Source: Candidatus Latescibacterota bacterium
GTDB taxonomy: Bacteria; Latescibacterota; UBA2968; UBA8231
Direction: 5' to 3'
Length of the DNA stretch: 64,000 nt
Assembly (NCBI GenBank): GCA_965261395.1
Contig: OZ253462.1
Coordinates: forward strand, 2,336,001-2,400,000
The notes beneath the pieces are model-generated. The model was not told where the DNA came from and ran no database searches. It saw only the letters and a program-made list of their open reading frames with translations. Numbering within the stretch: the first letter of the stretch is position 1; each line of letters opens with the position of its first letter. Both the position numbers and the translations under genes were made by a program. This document shows positions 1 to 6,558 of the stretch, piece by piece.

Positions 1-431
1 CGTCGGTGCAGCTTCTTGCGGATGCGCTTGCGGCGGCGGGCATTTTGGGCTTGGTCGGCCGCCGATTGCAGCTTTTGACGCAGCGTCTGGCACTTTACGC
101 GCACCCGCTCCACGTCGGCCCCTGAATACTGTTGACCGTCCGAGTCCGTCGCCAGATTCGCCACGCCCAAATCAACGCCAAGGAAGTCGTCCGGCTCACA
201 CGTCGTCGCGTCGTCGTATTCGACCGTAGCCATCAAGAACCACTTACCATCGCGCCGACGCACCAACTCGGCATACCGCTTGACGTGGCCGAACTGCTCG
301 GCTTGGTAGCGGCCCATCTTGCAAGGGATGTCCGTGCGGCCAGCCAGAGCCTTGAGGTTAATACACTCAAGCCCTTTGTAGCGGAGCAAGTGGCGATCAT
401 AGGGCATCGACGACAGCGGGCGAAACGACAT
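1..431 (-). CDS. tnpB: TnpB RNA-guided endonuclease, N-terminally shortened, 3' part outside the window (not in the ORF track)
   Basis: Manual translation from ATG 431: MSFRPLSSMPYDRHLLRYKGLECINLKALAGRTDIPCKMGRYQ...DGKWFLMATVEY...DDFLGVDLGVANLATDSDG...RRRKRIRKKLHR. RuvC-I motif GVDLG is followed by a basic bridge helix. Confidence 0.88.
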   Translation of the reverse strand, partial: MSFRPLSSMPYDRHLLRYKGLECINLKALAGRTDIPCKMGRYQAEQFGHVKRYAELVRRRDGKWFLMATVEYDDATTCEPDDFLGVDLGVANLATDSDGQQYSGADVERVRVKCQTLRQKLQSAADQAQNARRRKRIRKKLHR

Positions 432-540
432 AAAAACCAATACAGTCCGTGTGGAAAACTTTGTCAACCCGTAGTAACCAAAGGGAGAATCGGCGTTTCC
501 TCTGTCGCCTGAAGACGACAGGCTCCACGCCGAAATTTCT
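1..540 (-). mobile_element. IS200/IS605-family element (tnpB-only in view); left end at about 540, continues off the window start
   Basis: The minus strand reads TCAT|AGAAATTTCGGCGTGGAGCCTGTCGTCTTCAGGCGACAGAGGAAACGCCGA. This contains a subterminal hairpin CTGTCGTC-TTCA-GGCGACAG (502-521) inside an outer stem (490-496/527-533), directly upstream of a tnpB frame. Confidence 0.8.
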
Positions 541-3096
541 ATGAAACCTCTACATCGCCTCAATATCATTCCATCCCTGCCCGAGCAGTTGACGCCGCTG
601 TGGGAGCTGGGGTACAACCTCTGGTGGACTTGGAGCAAGGAGACCATCTGCACCCTCTACCAGATCGACCCGGAAACGTGGATCGAGAGCCAGCGCAATC
701 CCCTGCGCTTTTGGGCTTCCCTGCGGCCGGACCAGCTCGACGCCCTAATTGCCGACGAGCAACTGCGGGGTCGCATCGAGCGCATCGTCGAGCAATTCGA
801 GGGCTATTTGTCGCATACGGCGTGGTTTGGTCAGACGCACGGCGAGAGCCAGTTACAGGTTGCGTACTTCTCGGCGGAATTCGGCTTGACCGAGAGCCTA
901 CGCATTTATTCCGGCGGCTTGGGCGTGCTCGCCGGCGACCACCTCAAGGCCGCTAGCGACCTAGGCATTCCCCTCGTCGGGGTCGGCTTGCTCTACCGCG
1001 AGGGTTATTTCCGCCAAGCCCTCAACGCCGACGGCTGGCAGGCAGAGCGAAACCCGGAAAACGACTTCTACCAGATGCCCGTACAGCCGGTCTACACTCG
1101 CGACGGAGGGCACCTGACCATTGAGGTCCCCTTTGCCCACGGCTTGGTACAGGCGCGGATTTGGCGGGTGCAGGTGGGCCGGGTGCAGCTCTATTTGCTC
1201 GATACCAACCTCGACGAAAATACCCCTGCGGACCGCGATATTACCGCCCGCCTCTACGGCGGCGACGCAGCCATGCGCATCCGGCAGGAGATTCTCCTCG
1301 GCATCGGCGGTCTGCGTGCTCTCCAGGCCGTGGGCGTCGAACCTACCGTCTGCCACATGAACGAGGGGCACTCGGCCTTTTTGGCCCTAGAGCGGATTCG
1401 TCGGCTAATGGCCGAGCACGGCTATTCGTTTGCCACAGCCCGCGAGGCCAGCGTCATGGGCAATGTGTTCACTACACACACCCCGGTCGCGGCTGGCAAC
1501 GACTGGTTCCCCGCGCACCTAGTCGAGGCGCACTTGGGCTATTTCCGCGAGTGGCTCGGCCTGTCGCACGAGGAATTTATCGGCTTGGGCCGGGTTAATC
1601 CCCGCGACCCCCACGCCGACTTCTGCATGACGGTCTTGGCGCTCAGGCTTTCGGGCCGGGCCAATGGGGTCAGTCGCCTGCACGGCGCGGTTAGCCGCCG
1701 CATGTGGCAGGGCCTGTGGCCCGACTTCTCAGAGCACGAAATCCCCATCGGCCACGTCACCAACGGCGTTCATCTCCACACGTGGATTTCGCTGGAAATG
1801 GCCGAGCTGTTCGACCGCAAGCTCGGCGACGCCTGGCGCTTTGTCTCGACTGACGAGCGGGACTGGGACCCGGTCTATCACATCCCCGACCGCGAGCTGT
1901 GGGACACGCACCAGCACCGGCGCAAGCGGCTGATTGACGTAACCCGCCATCACCTGCGCCAGCAGATGCAGGGCCAAGGCGCGCCGGCGGCCAAAATTGA
2001 ACAGGCGCTAGCGCGGCTCGACCCCGAGGTGCTGACCATTGGCTTTGCCCGCCGCTTTGCCACCTACAAGCGCGGCAACCTGATTTTCCGCAATATCGAG
2101 CGGCTCAAGGCCCTGTTCTCCGACTCGCAGCGGCCCTTGCAGATTCTCTTCGCCGGCAAGGCCCACCCCCACGACGACGCTGGCAAGGAGCTGATCCGCC
2201 AGATCGTCCACCTCGCGCGACAAGCGCCCTTTAATGGCCGGATTTTCTTTTTGCAAGACTACGACATGAACCTCGCCCGCTACTTGGTGCAAGGGTGCGA
2301 TGTCTGGCTCAACAACCCTCGCCGCCCCTTGGAGGCGTCGGGCACGTCTGGCATGAAGGCTGCGGTCAACGGCGTGCTCAACGTCAGCGTATTCGATGGC
2401 TGGTGGGACGAAGCCTGCGACAACCACGCTGGTTGGACCATTGGCCGCGGCGAGGACTACGACGACGAACAGTACCAAGACGCGGTCGAGTCCAACTCGC
2501 TTTACGACCTGCTAGAAACCGAGGTGATCCCGCTCTTCTACCAGCGCGATGCGGACGGATTGCCCGGCGGTTGGGTTGCCCGTATGAAGGAGACCATCGC
2601 CCAGCTTGCGCCGCAGTACAACACGAACCGCATGGTGCGCGAGTACGTCGAGCGGTTCTATTTGCCTGGGCAAGCTCGCTTTGAGGAATTGGCGGCCGAC
2701 CGCGAGCGGGTCCAGCGGCTGACGCATTGGAAGTCGCACGTGCGCTCCAAGTGGGCCCAGGTCCAGATCGGCGCGGTGGATGCCGAATTTCCGCGGCTGC
2801 TCAAGGTGGGGATGCGGGTGCCGTTGCGCGCCGCAGTGGCCTTGGGCGAGCTAACGCCAGAGGATGTCCGCGTCGAGATCTACGCCGGCCGTCTCAATGC
2901 CCAGCGCGAGTTCTCGCAGACCGAGGTGTATCCGCTGGAATTGGCCGGTCCCAACGGCGACGGCACCTATCATTTCGTCGGCACCTTCACGTGCGCGGCG
3001 GCCGGCTCGTACGGCTACACCCTGCGCGTGGTGCCCTCGCACTCTGACTTGCAAAACTCCTTGGAGATGGGGTTGGTTCACTGGGCGAAGGGGTAA
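541..3096 (+). CDS. glgP: Alpha-glucan (glycogen/maltodextrin) phosphorylase, GT35
   Basis: 851 aa with YSGGLGVLAGD, HMNEGH, FTTHTP, GFARRFATYKR and the PLP-lysine motif EASGTSGMKA. Confidence 0.96.
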   Translation: MKPLHRLNIIPSLPEQLTPLWELGYNLWWTWSKETICTLYQIDPETWIESQRNPLRFWASLRPDQLDALIADEQLRGRIERIVEQFEGYLSHTAWFGQTHGESQLQVAYFSAEFGLTESLRIYSGGLGVLAGDHLKAASDLGIPLVGVGLLYREGYFRQALNADGWQAERNPENDFYQMPVQPVYTRDGGHLTIEVPFAHGLVQARIWRVQVGRVQLYLLDTNLDENTPADRDITARLYGGDAAMRIRQEILLGIGGLRALQAVGVEPTVCHMNEGHSAFLALERIRRLMAEHGYSFATAREASVMGNVFTTHTPVAAGNDWFPAHLVEAHLGYFREWLGLSHEEFIGLGRVNPRDPHADFCMTVLALRLSGRANGVSRLHGAVSRRMWQGLWPDFSEHEIPIGHVTNGVHLHTWISLEMAELFDRKLGDAWRFVSTDERDWDPVYHIPDRELWDTHQHRRKRLIDVTRHHLRQQMQGQGAPAAKIEQALARLDPEVLTIGFARRFATYKRGNLIFRNIERLKALFSDSQRPLQILFAGKAHPHDDAGKELIRQIVHLARQAPFNGRIFFLQDYDMNLARYLVQGCDVWLNNPRRPLEASGTSGMKAAVNGVLNVSVFDGWWDEACDNHAGWTIGRGEDYDDEQYQDAVESNSLYDLLETEVIPLFYQRDADGLPGGWVARMKETIAQLAPQYNTNRMVREYVERFYLPGQARFEELAADRERVQRLTHWKSHVRSKWAQVQIGAVDAEFPRLLKVGMRVPLRAAVALGELTPEDVRVEIYAGRLNAQREFSQTEVYPLELAGPNGDGTYHFVGTFTCAAAGSYGYTLRVVPSHSDLQNSLEMGLVHWAKG

Positions 3097-3266
3097 GGGA
3101 TGTGCGCTGTAGGTATAGACGCGCTTCAAGTTCGTCTTCGGGGATTGGTGGCTTCGCTATTTGTGGGAGTACCCAGCGAAGGCACCCCGTAGCAAAAAAT
3201 AAAGCCCCTGCCTCCAGCTTTTGCGGCATAGAGCGAGATTTTAAACTGAAACTGAGCCATGACCCT

Positions 3267-3611
3267 TTAAGGGTGTTGACTCGTCGTCAGTGAATCGGCG
3301 AGGGTGGTTACGATGGATTTCTCGTCCCGTTTCGATAGCGTACCGATTTTGCGTATCACCGATTTATTATCGAGCGTGAAAAGCTTTAGGCGGATTTTGC
3401 AAGGCACATTGAGGCCGGCTTCCTGCCAATTCTCAATGACTACATCGCTTGGCCATTTGTTTTTCGTGCTCGTAATCATGGCGAGGATCGTTTGCGTGTG
3501 GGCCTTATTGAAGCTCACTGAAGAGACGACTAGCGCCGGGCGGCGTTTCTTTTCATTGAGGTCTGCGAAGGGAAAGGGAACGACGACGACATCGAATGGA
3601 TCAAAGGTCAC
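3267..3611 (-). CDS. PemK/MazF-family type II toxin (endoribonuclease)
   Basis: FDVVVVPFPFAD..KKRRPALVVS..ILAMITS..AGL. Likely GTG start at 3611 overlaps the upstream stop by 11 nt, as in toxin-antitoxin operons. Confidence 0.9.
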   Translation of the reverse strand: MTFDPFDVVVVPFPFADLNEKKRRPALVVSSVSFNKAHTQTILAMITSTKNKWPSDVVIENWQEAGLNVPCKIRLKLFTLDNKSVIRKIGTLSKRDEKSIVTTLADSLTTSQHP

Positions 3612-4593
3612 GCCAAGCCTCCTCATCTTCTGGAGAAGTCCATTCTTCGCTCATCGTCTGATAAAGACCTCGCAGGTAATCTTCCTGAACTAGCGGCCAG
3701 CCACCGTAGGCTTCTATTGTTTCGTCAATGCTAGCCATGATGCGCGGCGTCTCGGCCAAGGCCGCACAGAGGCGACGGTAGTGGGCAATGCCGTCGTATG
3801 AGAGGGTGTGTTTTTTGCGGTCCTTGAGCCACTTCTCCGCCGGCTGGTAGCCACCAATAGTGAATTCCCACGTGTTTGGCTCAACGCCATCAAAATACTG
3901 CTCGCTGTTGATCCACACCCGCTTCTGCGGCGGCGCATAGCTCACCTTTTCTACGCGATTGTTGCCATCGACTGGAAAAACGGGGGCCTCGCCATCATCG
4001 GCTTCCATTAAGTGCAGGACTGTCAGTCGCTTCCCAAGCGCGGCGAGCGACTCAAACAGCGCACCGCAGTTGGTCACGGGAACGCGGGGAAAATCTGACT
4101 TGAGGAAGTCAGCGTAGCGGCGGCGGTATTCTGGGCTGTGGAGCACTGCGTAGAGGTAGTGGAAGACATCATCCGGGCCAAAGGTGGTGGTGAGATTGCC
4201 AGCACCGTCGGGGATGAAATCGAGGCTGACGGCTGATGCGAACTTCTTGATGAACCGGGAATCTAGGTTTGGAGCACGCGGGCTGGTGCCATCCGCTAGG
4301 GTCTCCGGCGGATAGATATACAGAGGGAACAGGTAGTTGACTTCTTTTAGAGATACTGTGTGGTGTTGAATGAGGTCCTTGGACGCGAAGACATGCTCCC
4401 AGCCCTTTGCGATTTCGGTCGATCTCGTAGTTGATAGCCCCAGATTCTCCCCGGCCAGTACATGCCGCATAACGTCATATACAGGCCATCCCAAAAACCC
4501 CTTTGACTTATCCGTGTAGTATGTCCACCTATAGTCAAAGGGCCTATATAGACAAAGCTTTATATATTCATCTTTGATTCGGCTTTGGTGCAT
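3601..4593 (-). pseudogene. C-terminal specificity region of a type ISP/IIG-like restriction-modification enzyme, 5'-truncated by the IS, ending in an antitoxin-like acidic tail
   Basis: YRPFD, LFPLY, DVFHYLYAVLHSPEYRRRYADFLKSDFPRVP and WEFTIGGYQPAEKWLKDRK are typical of the LlaBIII-type C-terminal domain. The ORF-track ATG lies inside the IS inverted repeat. Confidence 0.85.
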
Positions 4594-5765
4594 GAATTGG
4601 TGTTTTTTTCGGTTGATCGGTTGAATAAAAACAGGCTCCTCAGTAGATTGAGCACGACTTTCGCCAAAAAACCCATGCTTTCTCGTCCAAGGAACCTGTC
4701 ATGGCCAACCTATCGTCTTGCCCCTCTTCCGTCAAGCCTGGTCGCTCGCCTCGCCGTCGCTCCAACGTCGTGTACCGGGTACGTAATTGGGCCGACTATG
4801 AGGCCGGGCTGCAACAGCGCGGTAGTCTGACGGTGTGGTTCACGCCCCAGGCCGTCGAAGCTTGGTATTATCAAGGGCCGCCTCAGCGGGGGGCGCAATA
4901 TACCTTTTCGGAGGTCGCCATCCAAACGGCGTTGACGCTGCGTCTTTTGTATCACTTGCCCCTACGCCAAACCGAGGGGTTTGTCGCTTCGGTGTTGGCC
5001 CTGATGGGCTTGGATCTGCGGGTGCCCGATCACACGACCCTGTCGCGCCGTCAGGCGGGTTTAGCCGTGGCGTGGCCGCCCCAGCGGGGAGACCAACCGA
5101 TGCACTTGGTGGTGGATTCGACCGGGCTGAAAGTGTATGGCGAAGGCGAATGGAAGGTGCGTCAGCACGGCTGGAGCAAGCGGCGCACGTGGCGCAAATT
5201 GCACCTCGGGGTTAATGAAGCCACCGGCGAGATCGTCGCGCAGACCTTGACGACGAATAGCCACGATGATGCGGGGCAGGTGGAGCCGTTGCTGGCACAG
5301 ATCGAGGCCCCCGTGGAGGCGTTGGGCGGCGATGGGGCCTATGACAAACGCAAGGTGTTCAAGGCGTTGGCCGCGCCCGAGCAGGGGGCACCTATTCATC
5401 CGATCATTCCGCCGCGCAAGGACGCCAAAATCGAGCAACATGGCAACACCAACGCCGAGCCGTTGCCCCGCGATGAGACGATTCGAGCCATCCGCAAACG
5501 GGGCCGTCGAGGTTGGAAACACGAGAGCGGCTATCATCGACGCTCGGTAGCCGAAACGCAGATAGGCCGCTACAAACAGATACTTGGTGACACCTTGCGC
5601 ACCCGAACCCTAACCAACCAACAGACCGAAGCGCGGTTGGGCTGTGCCTTGCTCAACCGGATGCGGGCGTTGGCGAAACCTGAGTCCTATCCGCTAACCA
5701 AAAAAGCGTAAATCACACGCGAAAGAAGCCAACACGGCCCCGACCGGTTTTCATGCAACAAAGCC
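4581..5765 (+). mobile_element. IS5-family (IS903-group-like) insertion sequence, 1185 bp
   Basis: 16-bp terminal inverted repeats GGCTTTGGTGCATGAA (4581-4596) and TTCATGCAACAAAGCC (5750-5765), one mismatch. They resemble the IS903 end GGCTTTGTTGAATAA. No target duplication is visible. Confidence 0.92.
4701..5711 (+). CDS. IS5-family DDE transposase
   Basis: YRVRNWADY..RGSLTVW, VPDHTTLSRR, VDSTGLKVYGEGEW, WRKLHLG, DGAYD, YHRRSVAET. Confidence 0.95.
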   Translation: MANLSSCPSSVKPGRSPRRRSNVVYRVRNWADYEAGLQQRGSLTVWFTPQAVEAWYYQGPPQRGAQYTFSEVAIQTALTLRLLYHLPLRQTEGFVASVLALMGLDLRVPDHTTLSRRQAGLAVAWPPQRGDQPMHLVVDSTGLKVYGEGEWKVRQHGWSKRRTWRKLHLGVNEATGEIVAQTLTTNSHDDAGQVEPLLAQIEAPVEALGGDGAYDKRKVFKALAAPEQGAPIHPIIPPRKDAKIEQHGNTNAEPLPRDETIRAIRKRGRRGWKHESGYHRRSVAETQIGRYKQILGDTLRTRTLTNQQTEARLGCALLNRMRALAKPESYPLTKKA

Positions 5766-5766
5766 G

Positions 5767-6558
5767 TCCCCAGGCAAAAAAGGTGTTGCCATTCCGAAGC
5801 CCATCCAAAAGGGTATCGAATTCCGCGACGTATCGTTTTGCTATCCAGGGTCTAATGAGTACGTGCTGCGCAATATCTCCTACCATCTTCCCACCGGGCA
5901 TACGACGGCTATCGTCGGCCCTAATGGAGCTGGAAAGACGACACTAGTTAAGCTATTGATTCGACTATATGATCCAACCGAGGGGGCGATTTTAGTGGAT
6001 GGAATAGACCTGCGCGAGGTTGAACCCGAGTCGTGGTGGCGTCATATGAGTGTTATCTTCCAAGACTTCCAACGCTACAATCTATCGGCACGGGAAAACA
6101 TCGGCTTTGGCGAATTGGAGCACTTGCATGACGACGATAAACTCATGCAAGCAGCACGCCTTGCTGGAGCTGAGACGCTGATACAACAGTTCCCGAGAGG
6201 ACTTGACACCATGTTTGGTCGCATGTTCTCCGACGGGATCGAAATTTCCGGCGGGGAGTGGCAGCGCATTGCCCTTGGCAGAGCGTTTATTCGGGACGCA
6301 CAAGTAATTGTATTGGACGAGCCGACAGCATCGCTCGATGCTTTCACTGAGCAGGCAATATACGAAGGATTCGCGCGAGCGATTGTCGGCAAAACGGGGT
6401 TGCTGATCTCGCACCGATTTTCCACTGTTCGCATGGCGGACAGTATTCTCGTCCTGAAGGATGGGCAACTCGTTGAATATGGAACGCACGAGCACCTCAT
6501 TTCAACAAACGGCCTCTATGCCGAGATGTTCACAGCTCAAGCAAGTCAATACAGGTAG
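5767..6558 (+). pseudogene. ATPase half of a fused permease-ATPase ABC exporter, 5'-truncated at the IS
   Basis: The frame is open from the IS end (SPGKKG...GIEFRDVSFCYPG). Walker A GPNGAGKT, signature ISGGEWQR, Walker B LDEPT. The transmembrane domain is missing. Confidence 0.85.

Follow-up and report, generated by a model that had tools for sequence, protein, structure and literature searches.

Two kinds of addictive defence element that usually occur apart are toxin-antitoxin (TA) modules and restriction-modification (RM) systems. A toxin tied to a restriction system is PrrC, for which the phage peptide Stp is the trigger. As far as the account in PMC12707154 goes, PrrC is an RNA-cutting toxin thought to be silenced by the RM protein of the Type IC system EcoprrI, its gene lying within or beside the RM genes. 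The locus described here is similarly arranged, but its toxin is from an unrelated family, PrrC is bound by its enzyme non-covalently and carries no grafted antitoxin module, and the link described here survives the loss of the enzyme's catalytic domains, unlike that of PrrC with EcoprrI.

The MazE-MazF and PemI-PemK pairs have in common with this locus a MazF-fold toxin, an acidic C-terminal tail and an antitoxin frame that overlaps the toxin start. The disordered C-terminal part of MazE binds MazF and its N-terminal AbrB domain binds DNA, as summarized in PMC4803016, and the title of PDB entry 7du5 indicates that a complex of a MazF with an antitoxin fragment has been solved. In contrast, no AbrB DNA-binding and dimerization domain accompanies the tail here, which sits on a 1088-aa enzyme or on a 330-aa remnant; as the fusion lacks the AbrB domain, it would not regulate its own expression through that domain. 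Other antitoxins have exchanged or extra modules (those of toxin-antitoxin-chaperone systems, which bear a C-terminal extension, and fused proteins such as CapRel and EzeT); as far as outlined, they suggest that antitoxin parts are portable on other polypeptides. The partner of the antitoxin part in those cases is its own toxin or a chaperone-binding segment, whereas here it is an unrelated defence enzyme.

Among RM enzymes, the size and domain order of DrdV match those of the full-length relatives described below, as far as given in 10.1101/2021.01.06.425610. Here, unlike in DrdV and the MmeI-type IIL (IIG) enzymes, a foreign tail of 28 residues follows the native C-terminus, and the copy in the window (the whole stretch of 64,000 nt that was analysed) is a fragment. 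Type ISP enzymes such as LlaGI and LlaBIII have an Mrr-like nuclease and an SF2 helicase-like ATPase motor before the methyltransferase (MTase), an arrangement that the 1088-aa relatives lack. In the accessible parts of open-access papers and preprints, no RM enzyme with an antitoxin tail is described. As judged from sequence, the RM polypeptide at this locus probably carries the antitoxin of a MazF-like toxin, and the locus would act like an addiction module welded to an RM gene.

The toxin gene, the RM remnant and its tail

The features of the locus in the window are the following:

3267..3626, minus strand: PemK/MazF-family toxin gene (119 aa from the ATG at 3626; 114 aa from the GTG at 3611)
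3601-4593, minus strand: RM remnant ORF of 330 aa, with the C-terminus ...IEAYGGWPLV followed by QEDYLRGLYQTMSEEWTSPEDEEAWRDL
3601..3687, minus strand: antitoxin-derived tail, 28 codons (QEDYL...AWRDL) and stop codon
3618..3624, minus strand: SD-like GAGGAGG for the toxin GTG, within the tail codons D-E-E-A, 6 nt upstream of the GTG
3685..3687, minus strand: junction codon CAG (Gln), at the site of the stop codon in unfused homologues
3688..4580, minus strand: RM-derived part of the remnant; its counterpart in the relatives of 1088 aa is residues about 769-1060
4581..4593, minus strand: ATG and first four codons (MHQS) of the remnant, derived from the IS element, whose end reads outward here
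4581..5765, no strand assigned: IS5-family element of 1185 bp, with its transposase gene at 4701-5711 on the plus strand

The toxin matched the Pfam family PF02452 with an E-value of 3e-16 (60 bits; cut-off 23.1), and its 20.8 bits against the NCBIfam MazF equivalog, below the cut-off of 120, mean that it is not an equivalog of E. coli MazF. When its AF2 model (pLDDT 85) was used in Foldseek, 132 PDB chains were retrieved at E <= 0.001, the top matches being MazF of S. aureus and B. subtilis (E 2e-8, TM 0.72-0.76); a sequence-only PDB search gave 0 matches at E <= 0.01. Residues R29 and T52, which we take to be the catalytic Arg and Thr/Ser pair of MazF RNases, do not vary among the 14 homologues aligned. 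By family profile and predicted model the toxin is a MazF-fold protein, presumably active as an RNase. PADLOC had no match for it or for the canonical antitoxin described below.

The true start of the toxin is likely the GTG at 3611, since only the equivalent start is open in the paralogue L021 and in L008. From this GTG the toxin gene overlaps the upstream ORF by 11 nt, an overlap already noticed in the original prediction, and from the ATG by 26 nt. The charge of the toxin is +6.7 versus -7 for the tail, which is acidic (pI 4.05, computed from the sequence).

The remnant ORF is the 3' part, 330 codons long, of a Type IIG/IIL RM gene whose other 774 codons lie 176 kb away. It matched the C-terminal specificity domain Type_ISP_C of Pfam (PF18135; E 8.5e-75, positions 71-340 of 342 covered) and PADLOC REase_MTase_IIG (PDLC03610; E 6.2e-67), and is 70% identical to residues 769-1088 of the relative L004; it has neither a nuclease nor a methyltransferase domain in Pfam, and no NCBIfam family. 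The continuation of the frame for 28 residues beyond ..IEAYGGWPLV at 3601-3687, on which the original prediction was built, was confirmed, the Pfam and PADLOC models stopping at residues 286 and 294, respectively, before the tail. The ORF list contains no separate antitoxin gene at the locus, as had been claimed, though a paralogous pair exists elsewhere in the genome.

Around the locus (3000-4900), a scan found 0 promoter-like sites versus 1.3 expected and 3 terminator-like sites versus 2.6 expected. By eye, no SD-like motif was seen before the IS-derived ATG of the remnant, and neither tRNA genes nor Rfam families were found in the window. Metatranscriptome contigs from two runs of one study, covering 3333-3760 and 3503-3828, were considered as evidence of transcription; with 96-97% identity they run through the toxin, the tail and the 3' end of the RM gene, and their allele is that of a relative. 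This reading was dropped, as the contigs also cover the intergenic region 3121-3250 and DNA carry-over is possible.

The transposase of the IS element matched NCBIfam transpos_IS5_2 with an E-value of 2.5e-93. The genome holds 20 copies of the element, 99.8-100% identical, the comparison of which sets its boundary at 4581. At each end its terminal repeat has an ATG that reads outward, and the one at 4593, from which the remnant ORF starts, is part of the IS. The N-terminal part of the RM gene was located together with folD and an IS copy at G000:C1:2162199-2165703, and two 9-bp target duplications are divided between the two IS copies. Read from these sequences, the element and its second copy have broken the RM gene in two and caused an inversion of about 176 kb, so one uninterrupted RM gene is not found in this genome; a contig from another study spans 3009-4606. 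Since the IS copies are identical, the insertion is a recent one, which makes the open frame in the window weak evidence of selection; the chance of in-frame entry from the IS ATG was 1 in 3. An RM enzyme fused to a tail, as originally proposed, is found at full length in sister species, whereas the ORF of the window is an IS-cut remnant.

Full-length enzymes and distribution of the fusion

In relatives, the fused ORFs are full length (1083-1095 aa) and contain N6_Mtase (PF02384) and Type_ISP_C (PF18135) domains, the latter matched by L001 with an E-value of 3.8e-79. The full-length enzyme matched PADLOC REase_MTase_IIG (1096 positions) in two stretches with an E-value of 5.8e-275, and residues 304-953, with the MTase and specificity domains, matched PDB 7lo5 (E 2.9e-43), which we take to be DrdV, with whose chain length of 1029 the entry agrees. 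The NPPY motif and the SAM motif DPAAGTGTF, as in a gamma-class N6-adenine MTase, are invariant in 20 of 20 sequences. The nuclease and MTase parts have a dN/dS of 0.17-0.19. The N-terminal part has an invariant motif, ...PD(F)IVE...GHVECKD, which by eye only is PD...E-x-K-like; the AF2 model of residues 1-300 (7 sequences) has a low pLDDT of 36, and a PDB profile search with this part gave chance matches only (E > 1).

The original class assignment, type ISP-like, did not hold: Pfam finds no helicase domain in the 1088-aa protein, LlaBIII and LlaGI align with it over the MTase and specificity part only, and the Pfam name Type_ISP_C had been misleading. On domain content and homology, the enzyme of the relatives is a DrdV-like Type IIG/IIL RM enzyme. 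Its gene is uninterrupted in 5 sister genomes with the toxin and in 2 without it.

Full-length enzymes with the tail before pemK, for which a search had been suggested, do exist: within one Latescibacterota genus, 10 of 31 genomes carry the fusion, against 0 of the 45 genomes from 17 other genera of the family, and five carriers have both an intact enzyme of about 1090 aa and an intact toxin. It is no assembly quirk. All 24 large tail-bearing candidate clusters (798-1096 aa) and 5 of the 6 mid-size ones belong to this RM family. Uniqueness of the fusion to this assembly, and relatives with a separate antitoxin, had been named as arguments against the idea; the fusion is not unique, but distant relatives do have a separate antitoxin.

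The tail begins exactly at the stop position of unfused homologues, as the native stop lies 0-1 residue after GG[FW]P[LFI] in 12 of the 14 distant homologues examined. The junction codon is CAG in 9 of the 10 fusion genomes and TAG in G049. This TAG was considered as the ancestral state, with fusion by stop loss, and rejected: judged by the allele nearest to it, L007 (89.8% over 600 nt), which carries CAG, the TAG of G049 is more likely derived. The homologues in G007 and G016 end without tail or TA pair, all 27 metagenome loci are unfused, and an RM gene followed by a whole antitoxin, the expected ancestral state, was not found in this family.

Homology, selection and decay of the tail

The tail aligns with the last 27 residues of separate AbrB/MazE antitoxins of 74-86 aa (Pfam PF04014), which precede toxin homologues in Pseudomonadales, Polarisedimenticolaceae, Blastocatellia and the window's own genome. 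With a 30-position profile of it, 455 of 1.84 billion cluster representatives were retrieved at E <= 0.001. The canonical antitoxin-toxin paralogue elsewhere in the same genome has a tail 71-74% identical, a toxin 63% identical and the same 11-nt GTG...TGA overlap. The AbrB swapped-hairpin DNA-binding domain is absent from the fused ORFs, in which Pfam finds only Type_ISP_C and N6_Mtase. The antitoxin-like character originally read into the tail was therefore borne out by these alignments, by which it is a homologue of the toxin-binding C-terminal tail of AbrB/MazE-type antitoxins and not a chance resemblance. In 5 of 5 full-length carriers no substitute antitoxin of the tail type was found, the fusion being the only match, and G041 has no other match to this antitoxin at E <= 0.1.

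With a dN/dS of 0.077 at a dS of 0.40 over its 19 non-overlapping codons, the tail has the lowest value in the gene, and its 9 codons overlapping the toxin show no synonymous changes across 10 gene pairs. For the toxin, dN/dS is 0.24, and its ORF is intact in 8 of the 10 fusion genomes. In 8 of these 8 toxin-intact genomes a start codon leads an uninterrupted frame through the tail: the ORF is full length in five, two (G042 and G048) have in common an in-frame deletion of 2004 nt that keeps the native start, removes nuclease and MTase and leaves a form of 418 aa, and one, the window, has the IS-supplied ATG. Both genomes that lost the toxin have an altered tail, G049 with the TAG at the junction plus 4 substitutions and G026 with 2 substitutions; all carriers are from one genus and one fusion event, so the 10 genomes are kin and this 8-versus-2 pattern is small. 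As the tail of G026 is in frame without the toxin, its presence does not strictly need the toxin. The deletion remnants L005 and L006 differ by 45 synonymous and 22 non-synonymous changes (dN/dS 0.13), an argument that recombination may blur because each is closer to the full-length L001 than to the other. Taken as codon-level evidence, the substitution pattern indicates that the tail is at present under selection as a protein. The accidental fusion offered as an alternative in the original prediction would then probably describe its origin but not its present state.

Possible roles of the fused tail

In the reading that we favour, a MazEF-type module behind a DrdV-like Type IIG/IIL RM gene would have lost the AbrB domain of its antitoxin in one Latescibacterota genus. 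The leftover acidic tail of 28 residues would have become a C-terminal extension of the enzyme, from the former stop codon on, while the toxin gene would have retained its own ribosome-binding site, inside the tail codons, and its GTG start, with 11 nt shared between the toxin gene and the 3' end of the fused ORF. The RM polypeptide would be an antitoxin in cis, with the tail binding and blocking the basic MazF-like RNase dimer by analogy with MazE tails. The tail is made only if the RM frame is read to its end, so that frame-breaking RM mutations would be penalized as long as the toxin is alive. In the window, the IS cut and the inversion would have removed the 5' part, leaving a 330-codon ORF that starts at the IS ATG and keeps the tail before an intact toxin. 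We infer that this remnant is expressed, and its tail probably restrains the RNA-cutting toxin encoded next to it. Against this reading, the canonical paralogue of the same genome might protect in trans. The proposal that the RM enzyme itself is the antitoxin thus fits the sister species, with their antitoxin-derived tail, full-length enzyme before an intact toxin and no other such antitoxin, but not the window, where the enzyme is dead.

A further step would make the TA pair a seal on the defence gene: anything that stops the full-length enzyme (mutation, transposon or phage) would also stop the antitoxin and free the MazF RNase, enforcing the integrity of the RM frame and adding a second, abortive line of defence. 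We hold this extension to be possible but doubtful.

A guard, or backup abortive infection, was the role originally proposed: the toxin would be released when a phage inhibits or degrades the RM enzyme or stops its synthesis, and translation would be shut down, as with PrrC and EcoprrI, an established precedent according to the account in PMC12707154. By inference, the toxin is tied to an RM enzyme under purifying selection in 5 genomes. The specificity domain of this enzyme differs among alleles in a mosaic fashion, the pattern that an actively used defence gene should show, and the locus occupies a variable cassette site, adjoining another HTH-type module. However, we know of no phage trigger for the fused-tail toxin, and no structural coupling of the state of the enzyme to the terminal tail is visible. 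Moreover, the pair of tail and toxin is unchanged after the deletion of nuclease and MTase in G042 and G048 or the IS cut in the window, so it does not need a working enzyme; in the window the enzyme, split by the IS, is dead and cannot guard RM function. In Vicinamibacterales, which belong to another phylum, a deletion has joined the same tail to a MutS-like gene unrelated to the RM gene (L042, L035), and the choice of partner may therefore be incidental. Release upon host shut-off would also be explained by the ordinary labile-antitoxin mechanism, with no sensing by the enzyme. On balance, a guard role appears unlikely.

The Vicinamibacterales fusion is accompanied by a dead toxin and by loss of the conserved Trp, so fusions of exactly this kind can be mere scars, that is, decay products. 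The fusion could likewise be an inert product of neutral deletion, its toxin inactive or held in trans by another antitoxin and its tail without present function. A short ABC-ATPase fragment with the tail (P0096) and the paralogous canonical pair in the window's genome are in line with this idea; a search of longer proteins with the canonical antitoxin missed the RM fusions and is thus incomplete, so that its silence on other fusions is weak. The low dN/dS of the tail, the constraint on the toxin and its intact ORF in most carriers, and the lack of another tail-type antitoxin in all full-length carriers argue against an inert scar, as does the persistence of the fusion across species differing by a dS of about 0.4, and we consider it very improbable.

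Least probable of all is that a small antitoxin of 17-52 aa is made by internal initiation within the RM 3' end, the enzyme itself not being the antitoxin: in-frame starts do exist (TTG at -52 and ATG at -45 in 8 of 8 toxin-intact alleles, and a third at -17 that is ATG in 7 alleles and TTG in L007), and metagenomes contain tail-only ORFs of 31-50 aa, many of which may be cut genes, but no SD-like motif lies 4-16 nt upstream of these starts in 8 of 8 alleles, whereas the toxin GTG has one, and every truncation seen leaves the long ORF readable from a start codon, something that a self-starting peptide would not need.

If the favoured reading, with the antitoxin carried by the RM polypeptide, is true, a single polypeptide would serve as enzyme and as antitoxin, and its 28 residues on a foreign carrier would be a natural test of a minimal antitoxin. 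The natural series from full enzyme through in-frame deletion and IS-truncated remnant to toxin loss with tail loss would provide ready-made constructs, and the locus would illustrate how a gene can be shielded against decay by an addiction module beside it.

The truncated RM gene and its toxin

Features of the window
3-653, minus strand: ORF running off the window start, matching OrfB_IS605 (TnpB-like transposase, E 1.1e-7)
3267-3626, minus strand: 119-aa ORF, PemK/MazF toxin (Pfam PF02452, E 3e-16)
3601-4593, minus strand: 330-aa ORF overlapping the toxin ORF; Type_ISP_C specificity domain at residues 5-286 (only model positions 71-340 of 342, E 8.5e-75)
4581-5765: IS5-family element (NCBIfam transpos_IS5_2, E 2.5e-93)

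The 330-aa ORF ends in ...IEAYGGWPLV followed by QEDYLRGLYQTMSEEWTSPEDEEAWRDL, and these last 28 residues (the tail) lie outside both the Type_ISP_C model and the PADLOC Type IIG model, which stops at residue 294. The original prediction, in which an RM enzyme fused to an antitoxin-like tail precedes the toxin, described the sequence accurately but was wrong to speak of an enzyme: the window gene is a fragment, because it holds a partial specificity domain and, by domain search, neither a methyltransferase nor a nuclease.

The AF2 model of the toxin (pLDDT 85) was matched by 132 chains of solved structures at E <= 0.001, the best being solved MazF (E 2e-8, TM 0.72-0.76). Translation of the toxin probably begins at the GTG of position 3611; a GAGGAGG lies 6 nt upstream of it and is encoded by the tail codons D-E-E-A. 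The resulting overlap of the two frames, 11 nt, recurs in a canonical paralogue of the same genome (G000), in which the antitoxin is a separate gene.

The fused enzyme and the source of its tail

Toxins 87-92% identical to that of the window are carried by seven Latescibacterota MAGs, and in five of them an ORF of 1083-1095 aa ends in the same tail, overlapping the toxin start. The full-length protein contains N6_Mtase and Type_ISP_C domains, matches the PADLOC Type IIG enzyme model (E 5.8e-275) and also PDB 7lo5 (1029 aa, E 2.9e-43), which we take to be DrdV and which ranked above the Type ISP enzymes LlaBIII and LlaGI. The preprint on DrdV (10.1101/2021.01.06.425610) classes it as Type IIL, gives its length as 1029 residues and divides it into nuclease, connector, MTase and specificity domains, the last two of which resemble Type ISP enzymes. 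A Type ISP identity was rejected for the fused enzyme: as no helicase motor was found in the full-length protein, it is of Type IIG/IIL. An N-terminal PD...E-x-K-like motif is invariant; an AF2 model of this part and a PDB profile search gave no structural support for a nuclease fold.

A search of the family's 76 genomes gave RM-plus-tail matches in 10 of 31 within the window's genus and in none of 45 from 17 other genera. Tail-carrying candidates in the protein collection belonged to the RM family in 24/24 large (798-1096 aa) and 5/6 mid-size (278-528 aa) cases. All RM-tail fusions represent one fusion event in one genus.

None of 27 distant unfused metagenome homologues aligned past residue 302 of the window ORF. 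Among the 14 that reached the C-terminus (the 13 others were dropped), the stop codon lay 0-1 residue after GG[FW]P[LFI] in 12 and 13 residues further on in two. In the fused proteins, GGWPLV is followed by Q (CAG). Therefore, the tail begins at the native stop position and the whole enzyme is preserved.

Toxin homologues of 44-61% identity in Pseudomonadales, Polarisedimenticolaceae and Blastocatellia MAGs each have a separate small antitoxin upstream, with an AbrB/MazE domain (PF04014), and the fused tail aligns with the last 27 residues of these antitoxins. In the canonical pair of G000, 3.3 Mb from the window, the antitoxin has 74 aa; identity to the window's pair is 71-74% in the tail and 63% in the toxin. 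As described in PMC4803016, the disordered C-terminal part of MazE binds MazF and its N-terminal AbrB domain binds DNA. The computed charges are -7.2 for the strongly acidic tail and +6.7 for the basic toxin. A 30-position tail profile matched 455 representatives among 1.84 billion at E <= 0.001; of the best 150, 149 were of 30-161 aa and one, of 528 aa, represents the fused RM family. The tail was also seen in proteins with a different small N-terminal domain that has no Pfam match (117-119 aa), in an ABC-ATPase fragment (161 aa) and in short ORFs (31-50 aa) that are close to the tail alone (among P0148, P0161, P0041, P0081, P0039 and P0096); some of these small proteins may be cut gene calls.

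The closest RM paralogue in G000 (L014/L019, 43-44% identity, G000:C1:2794213-2797253, minus strand) consists of overlapping ORFs of 735 and 338 aa, perhaps because it is a pseudogene with a frameshift, perhaps as a two-part form; at least four further RM-enzyme paralogues have 1088-1255 aa. The middle of the specificity domain (window 3688-4450) is a mosaic, the window, P0001 and P0028 sharing one variant (STTRSTEIAKGWEH... / KSKGFLGWPVY...) and L004, a full-length sister enzyme, and most others having another, which suggests that recognition modules may be exchanged between alleles. The RM-toxin cassette follows folD immediately. Some genomes have direct repeats of the folD 3' end on either side of it (86 nt, 93% identical; L003:638-723 and 4459-4544), and at locus L023 the third of three such copies (857-1007, 4300-4363 and 5227-5377) bounds a further small cassette; the site has the look of a hot spot at which defence or TA cassettes insert. 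At the sister locus L001, an HTH_3 (HigA-like) ORF adjoins the cassette.

Insertion, inversion and decay of the RM gene

The IS5-family element is very active, with 20 copies in the genome at >= 99.8% identity, and 7 copies of a relative at about 82%. An outward-reading ATG is present at both IS ends, 11-13 nt from the terminus, so a gene that is hit in the right phase is left as an N-terminally truncated ORF whose start codon the IS provides. The ATG of the remnant, at 4593, lies inside the IS end, and an ORF at 5753-5947 on the plus strand begins likewise.

The 5' part that the window's RM gene lacks was located 176 kb away on the opposite strand, at G000:C1:2162199-2164388, with folD before it and another IS copy (G000:C1:2164519-2165703) after it; it encodes residues 1 to about 774 and is 81% identical to the enzyme of a sister genome. 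A second split gene encodes an ABC-transporter ATPase (ABC_tran, E 4.9e-31) and has its halves at window 5766-6558 and beyond G000:C1:2165703. The 9-bp target duplications of both genes are divided between the same two IS copies, which means that two insertions were followed by a 176-kb inversion between the copies. The joint between remnant and IS is not peculiar to the assembly, since it recurs in a run of another study, where a 1598-nt contig spans 3009-4606 with a single mismatch. Contigs in two other runs show no mismatch up to 4580 and then pass into non-IS sequence, one of them continuing the RM frame (translation by eye); therefore, an uninterrupted allele exists in other samples. The insertion in the window's RM gene is recent.

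The toxin is intact in 8 of the 10 fusion genomes, and in all eight the tail belongs to an open frame that has a start codon: five genes are full length, two share an in-frame deletion and one, that of the window, has the IS-supplied start. The deletion (2004 nt, loci L005 and L006) leaves the native start with the first 8 codons, after which the frame resumes at about codon 679; the same form is seen in P0026, a cluster of 10 member sequences. The two remnants differ by 45 synonymous and 22 non-synonymous changes (dN/dS 0.13); since each is nearer a full-length allele than the other, recombination may be involved. The remaining toxins are reduced to about 25 codons in G049, with TAG at the RM junction codon and four other substitutions in the untranslated tail, and to 12 codons in G026, with the tail still in frame and two substitutions. 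The TAG is probably derived, as the nearest allele has CAG. A live toxin with an untranslatable tail was found in none of the 10 genomes.

According to the guard mechanism of the original prediction, phage inhibition or loss of the RM enzyme would release the toxin. The linkage of toxin and RM gene is the one argument in its favour, but the tail-toxin pair persists without the enzyme's catalytic domains, and such a guard is unlikely.

Selection and the predicted antitoxin function

dN/dS of the fused genes and the toxin (Nei-Gojobori counts pooled over 10 pairs of five full-length genes; pairs not independent)
Nuclease part: 0.19
MTase: 0.17
Specificity domain: 0.33
19 tail codons outside the toxin overlap: 0.077 (dS 0.40)
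Toxin: 0.24

By these estimates, the enzyme itself is under purifying selection, and the tail, having the lowest ratio, is constrained as protein beyond any other part of the gene. The 9 tail codons that overlap the toxin gene showed no synonymous change in the 10 pooled pairs. An inert scar, that is, a fusion without present function, is at odds with these data and very improbable. About as improbable is a small peptide made by internal initiation inside the RM gene: no SD-like motif precedes any of three in-frame starts in 8/8 alleles.

A long-protein search with the canonical tail yielded two 666-aa MutS-like proteins (MutS_V, MutS_III) that end in it, with the conserved Trp replaced. Among 26 Acidobacteriota loci around the MutS-like gene (L028-L043 being Vicinamibacterales MAGs, in which this ATPase is membrane-associated), seven have the gene followed by a separate AbrB antitoxin and an intact toxin (MazEF-type, same tail family), one (L042) has the tail fused and the toxin cut after about 25 residues, one (L035) has part of the tail fused and lacks the toxin, one has a broken toxin and 16 have no module. 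These MutS-tail fusions are what a dying module has left behind. Fusion of the tail to an upstream gene by deletion thus recurs, so that the identity of the partner counts for less and the guard idea loses weight. By contrast, the Latescibacterota fusion, with live toxin and constrained tail, is probably a working arrangement.

The open-access literature and preprints searched (PMC12707154, PMC2701414 and PMC10865869 among the texts) yielded, in the portions available, RM-repressor and C-protein fusions and the PrrC-EcoprrI case, and no RM enzyme with an antitoxin tail.

The tail part of the canonical antitoxin, searched in the five full-length carriers, matched only the fusion itself; in one of them (G041) the canonical antitoxin gave no other match at E <= 0.1. 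In the window genome, the paralogous canonical antitoxin may help in trans; the remnant there is a predicted antitoxin carrier only, its expression being putative.

Taken from sequence, the RM polypeptide, or its remainder, probably carries the antitoxin of a MazF-like RNase, both binding and toxicity being predicted. The tail would be made only when the long frame is read to its end, so that frame-breaking mutations would be penalised while the toxin lives, and the decay states observed fit such a penalty.
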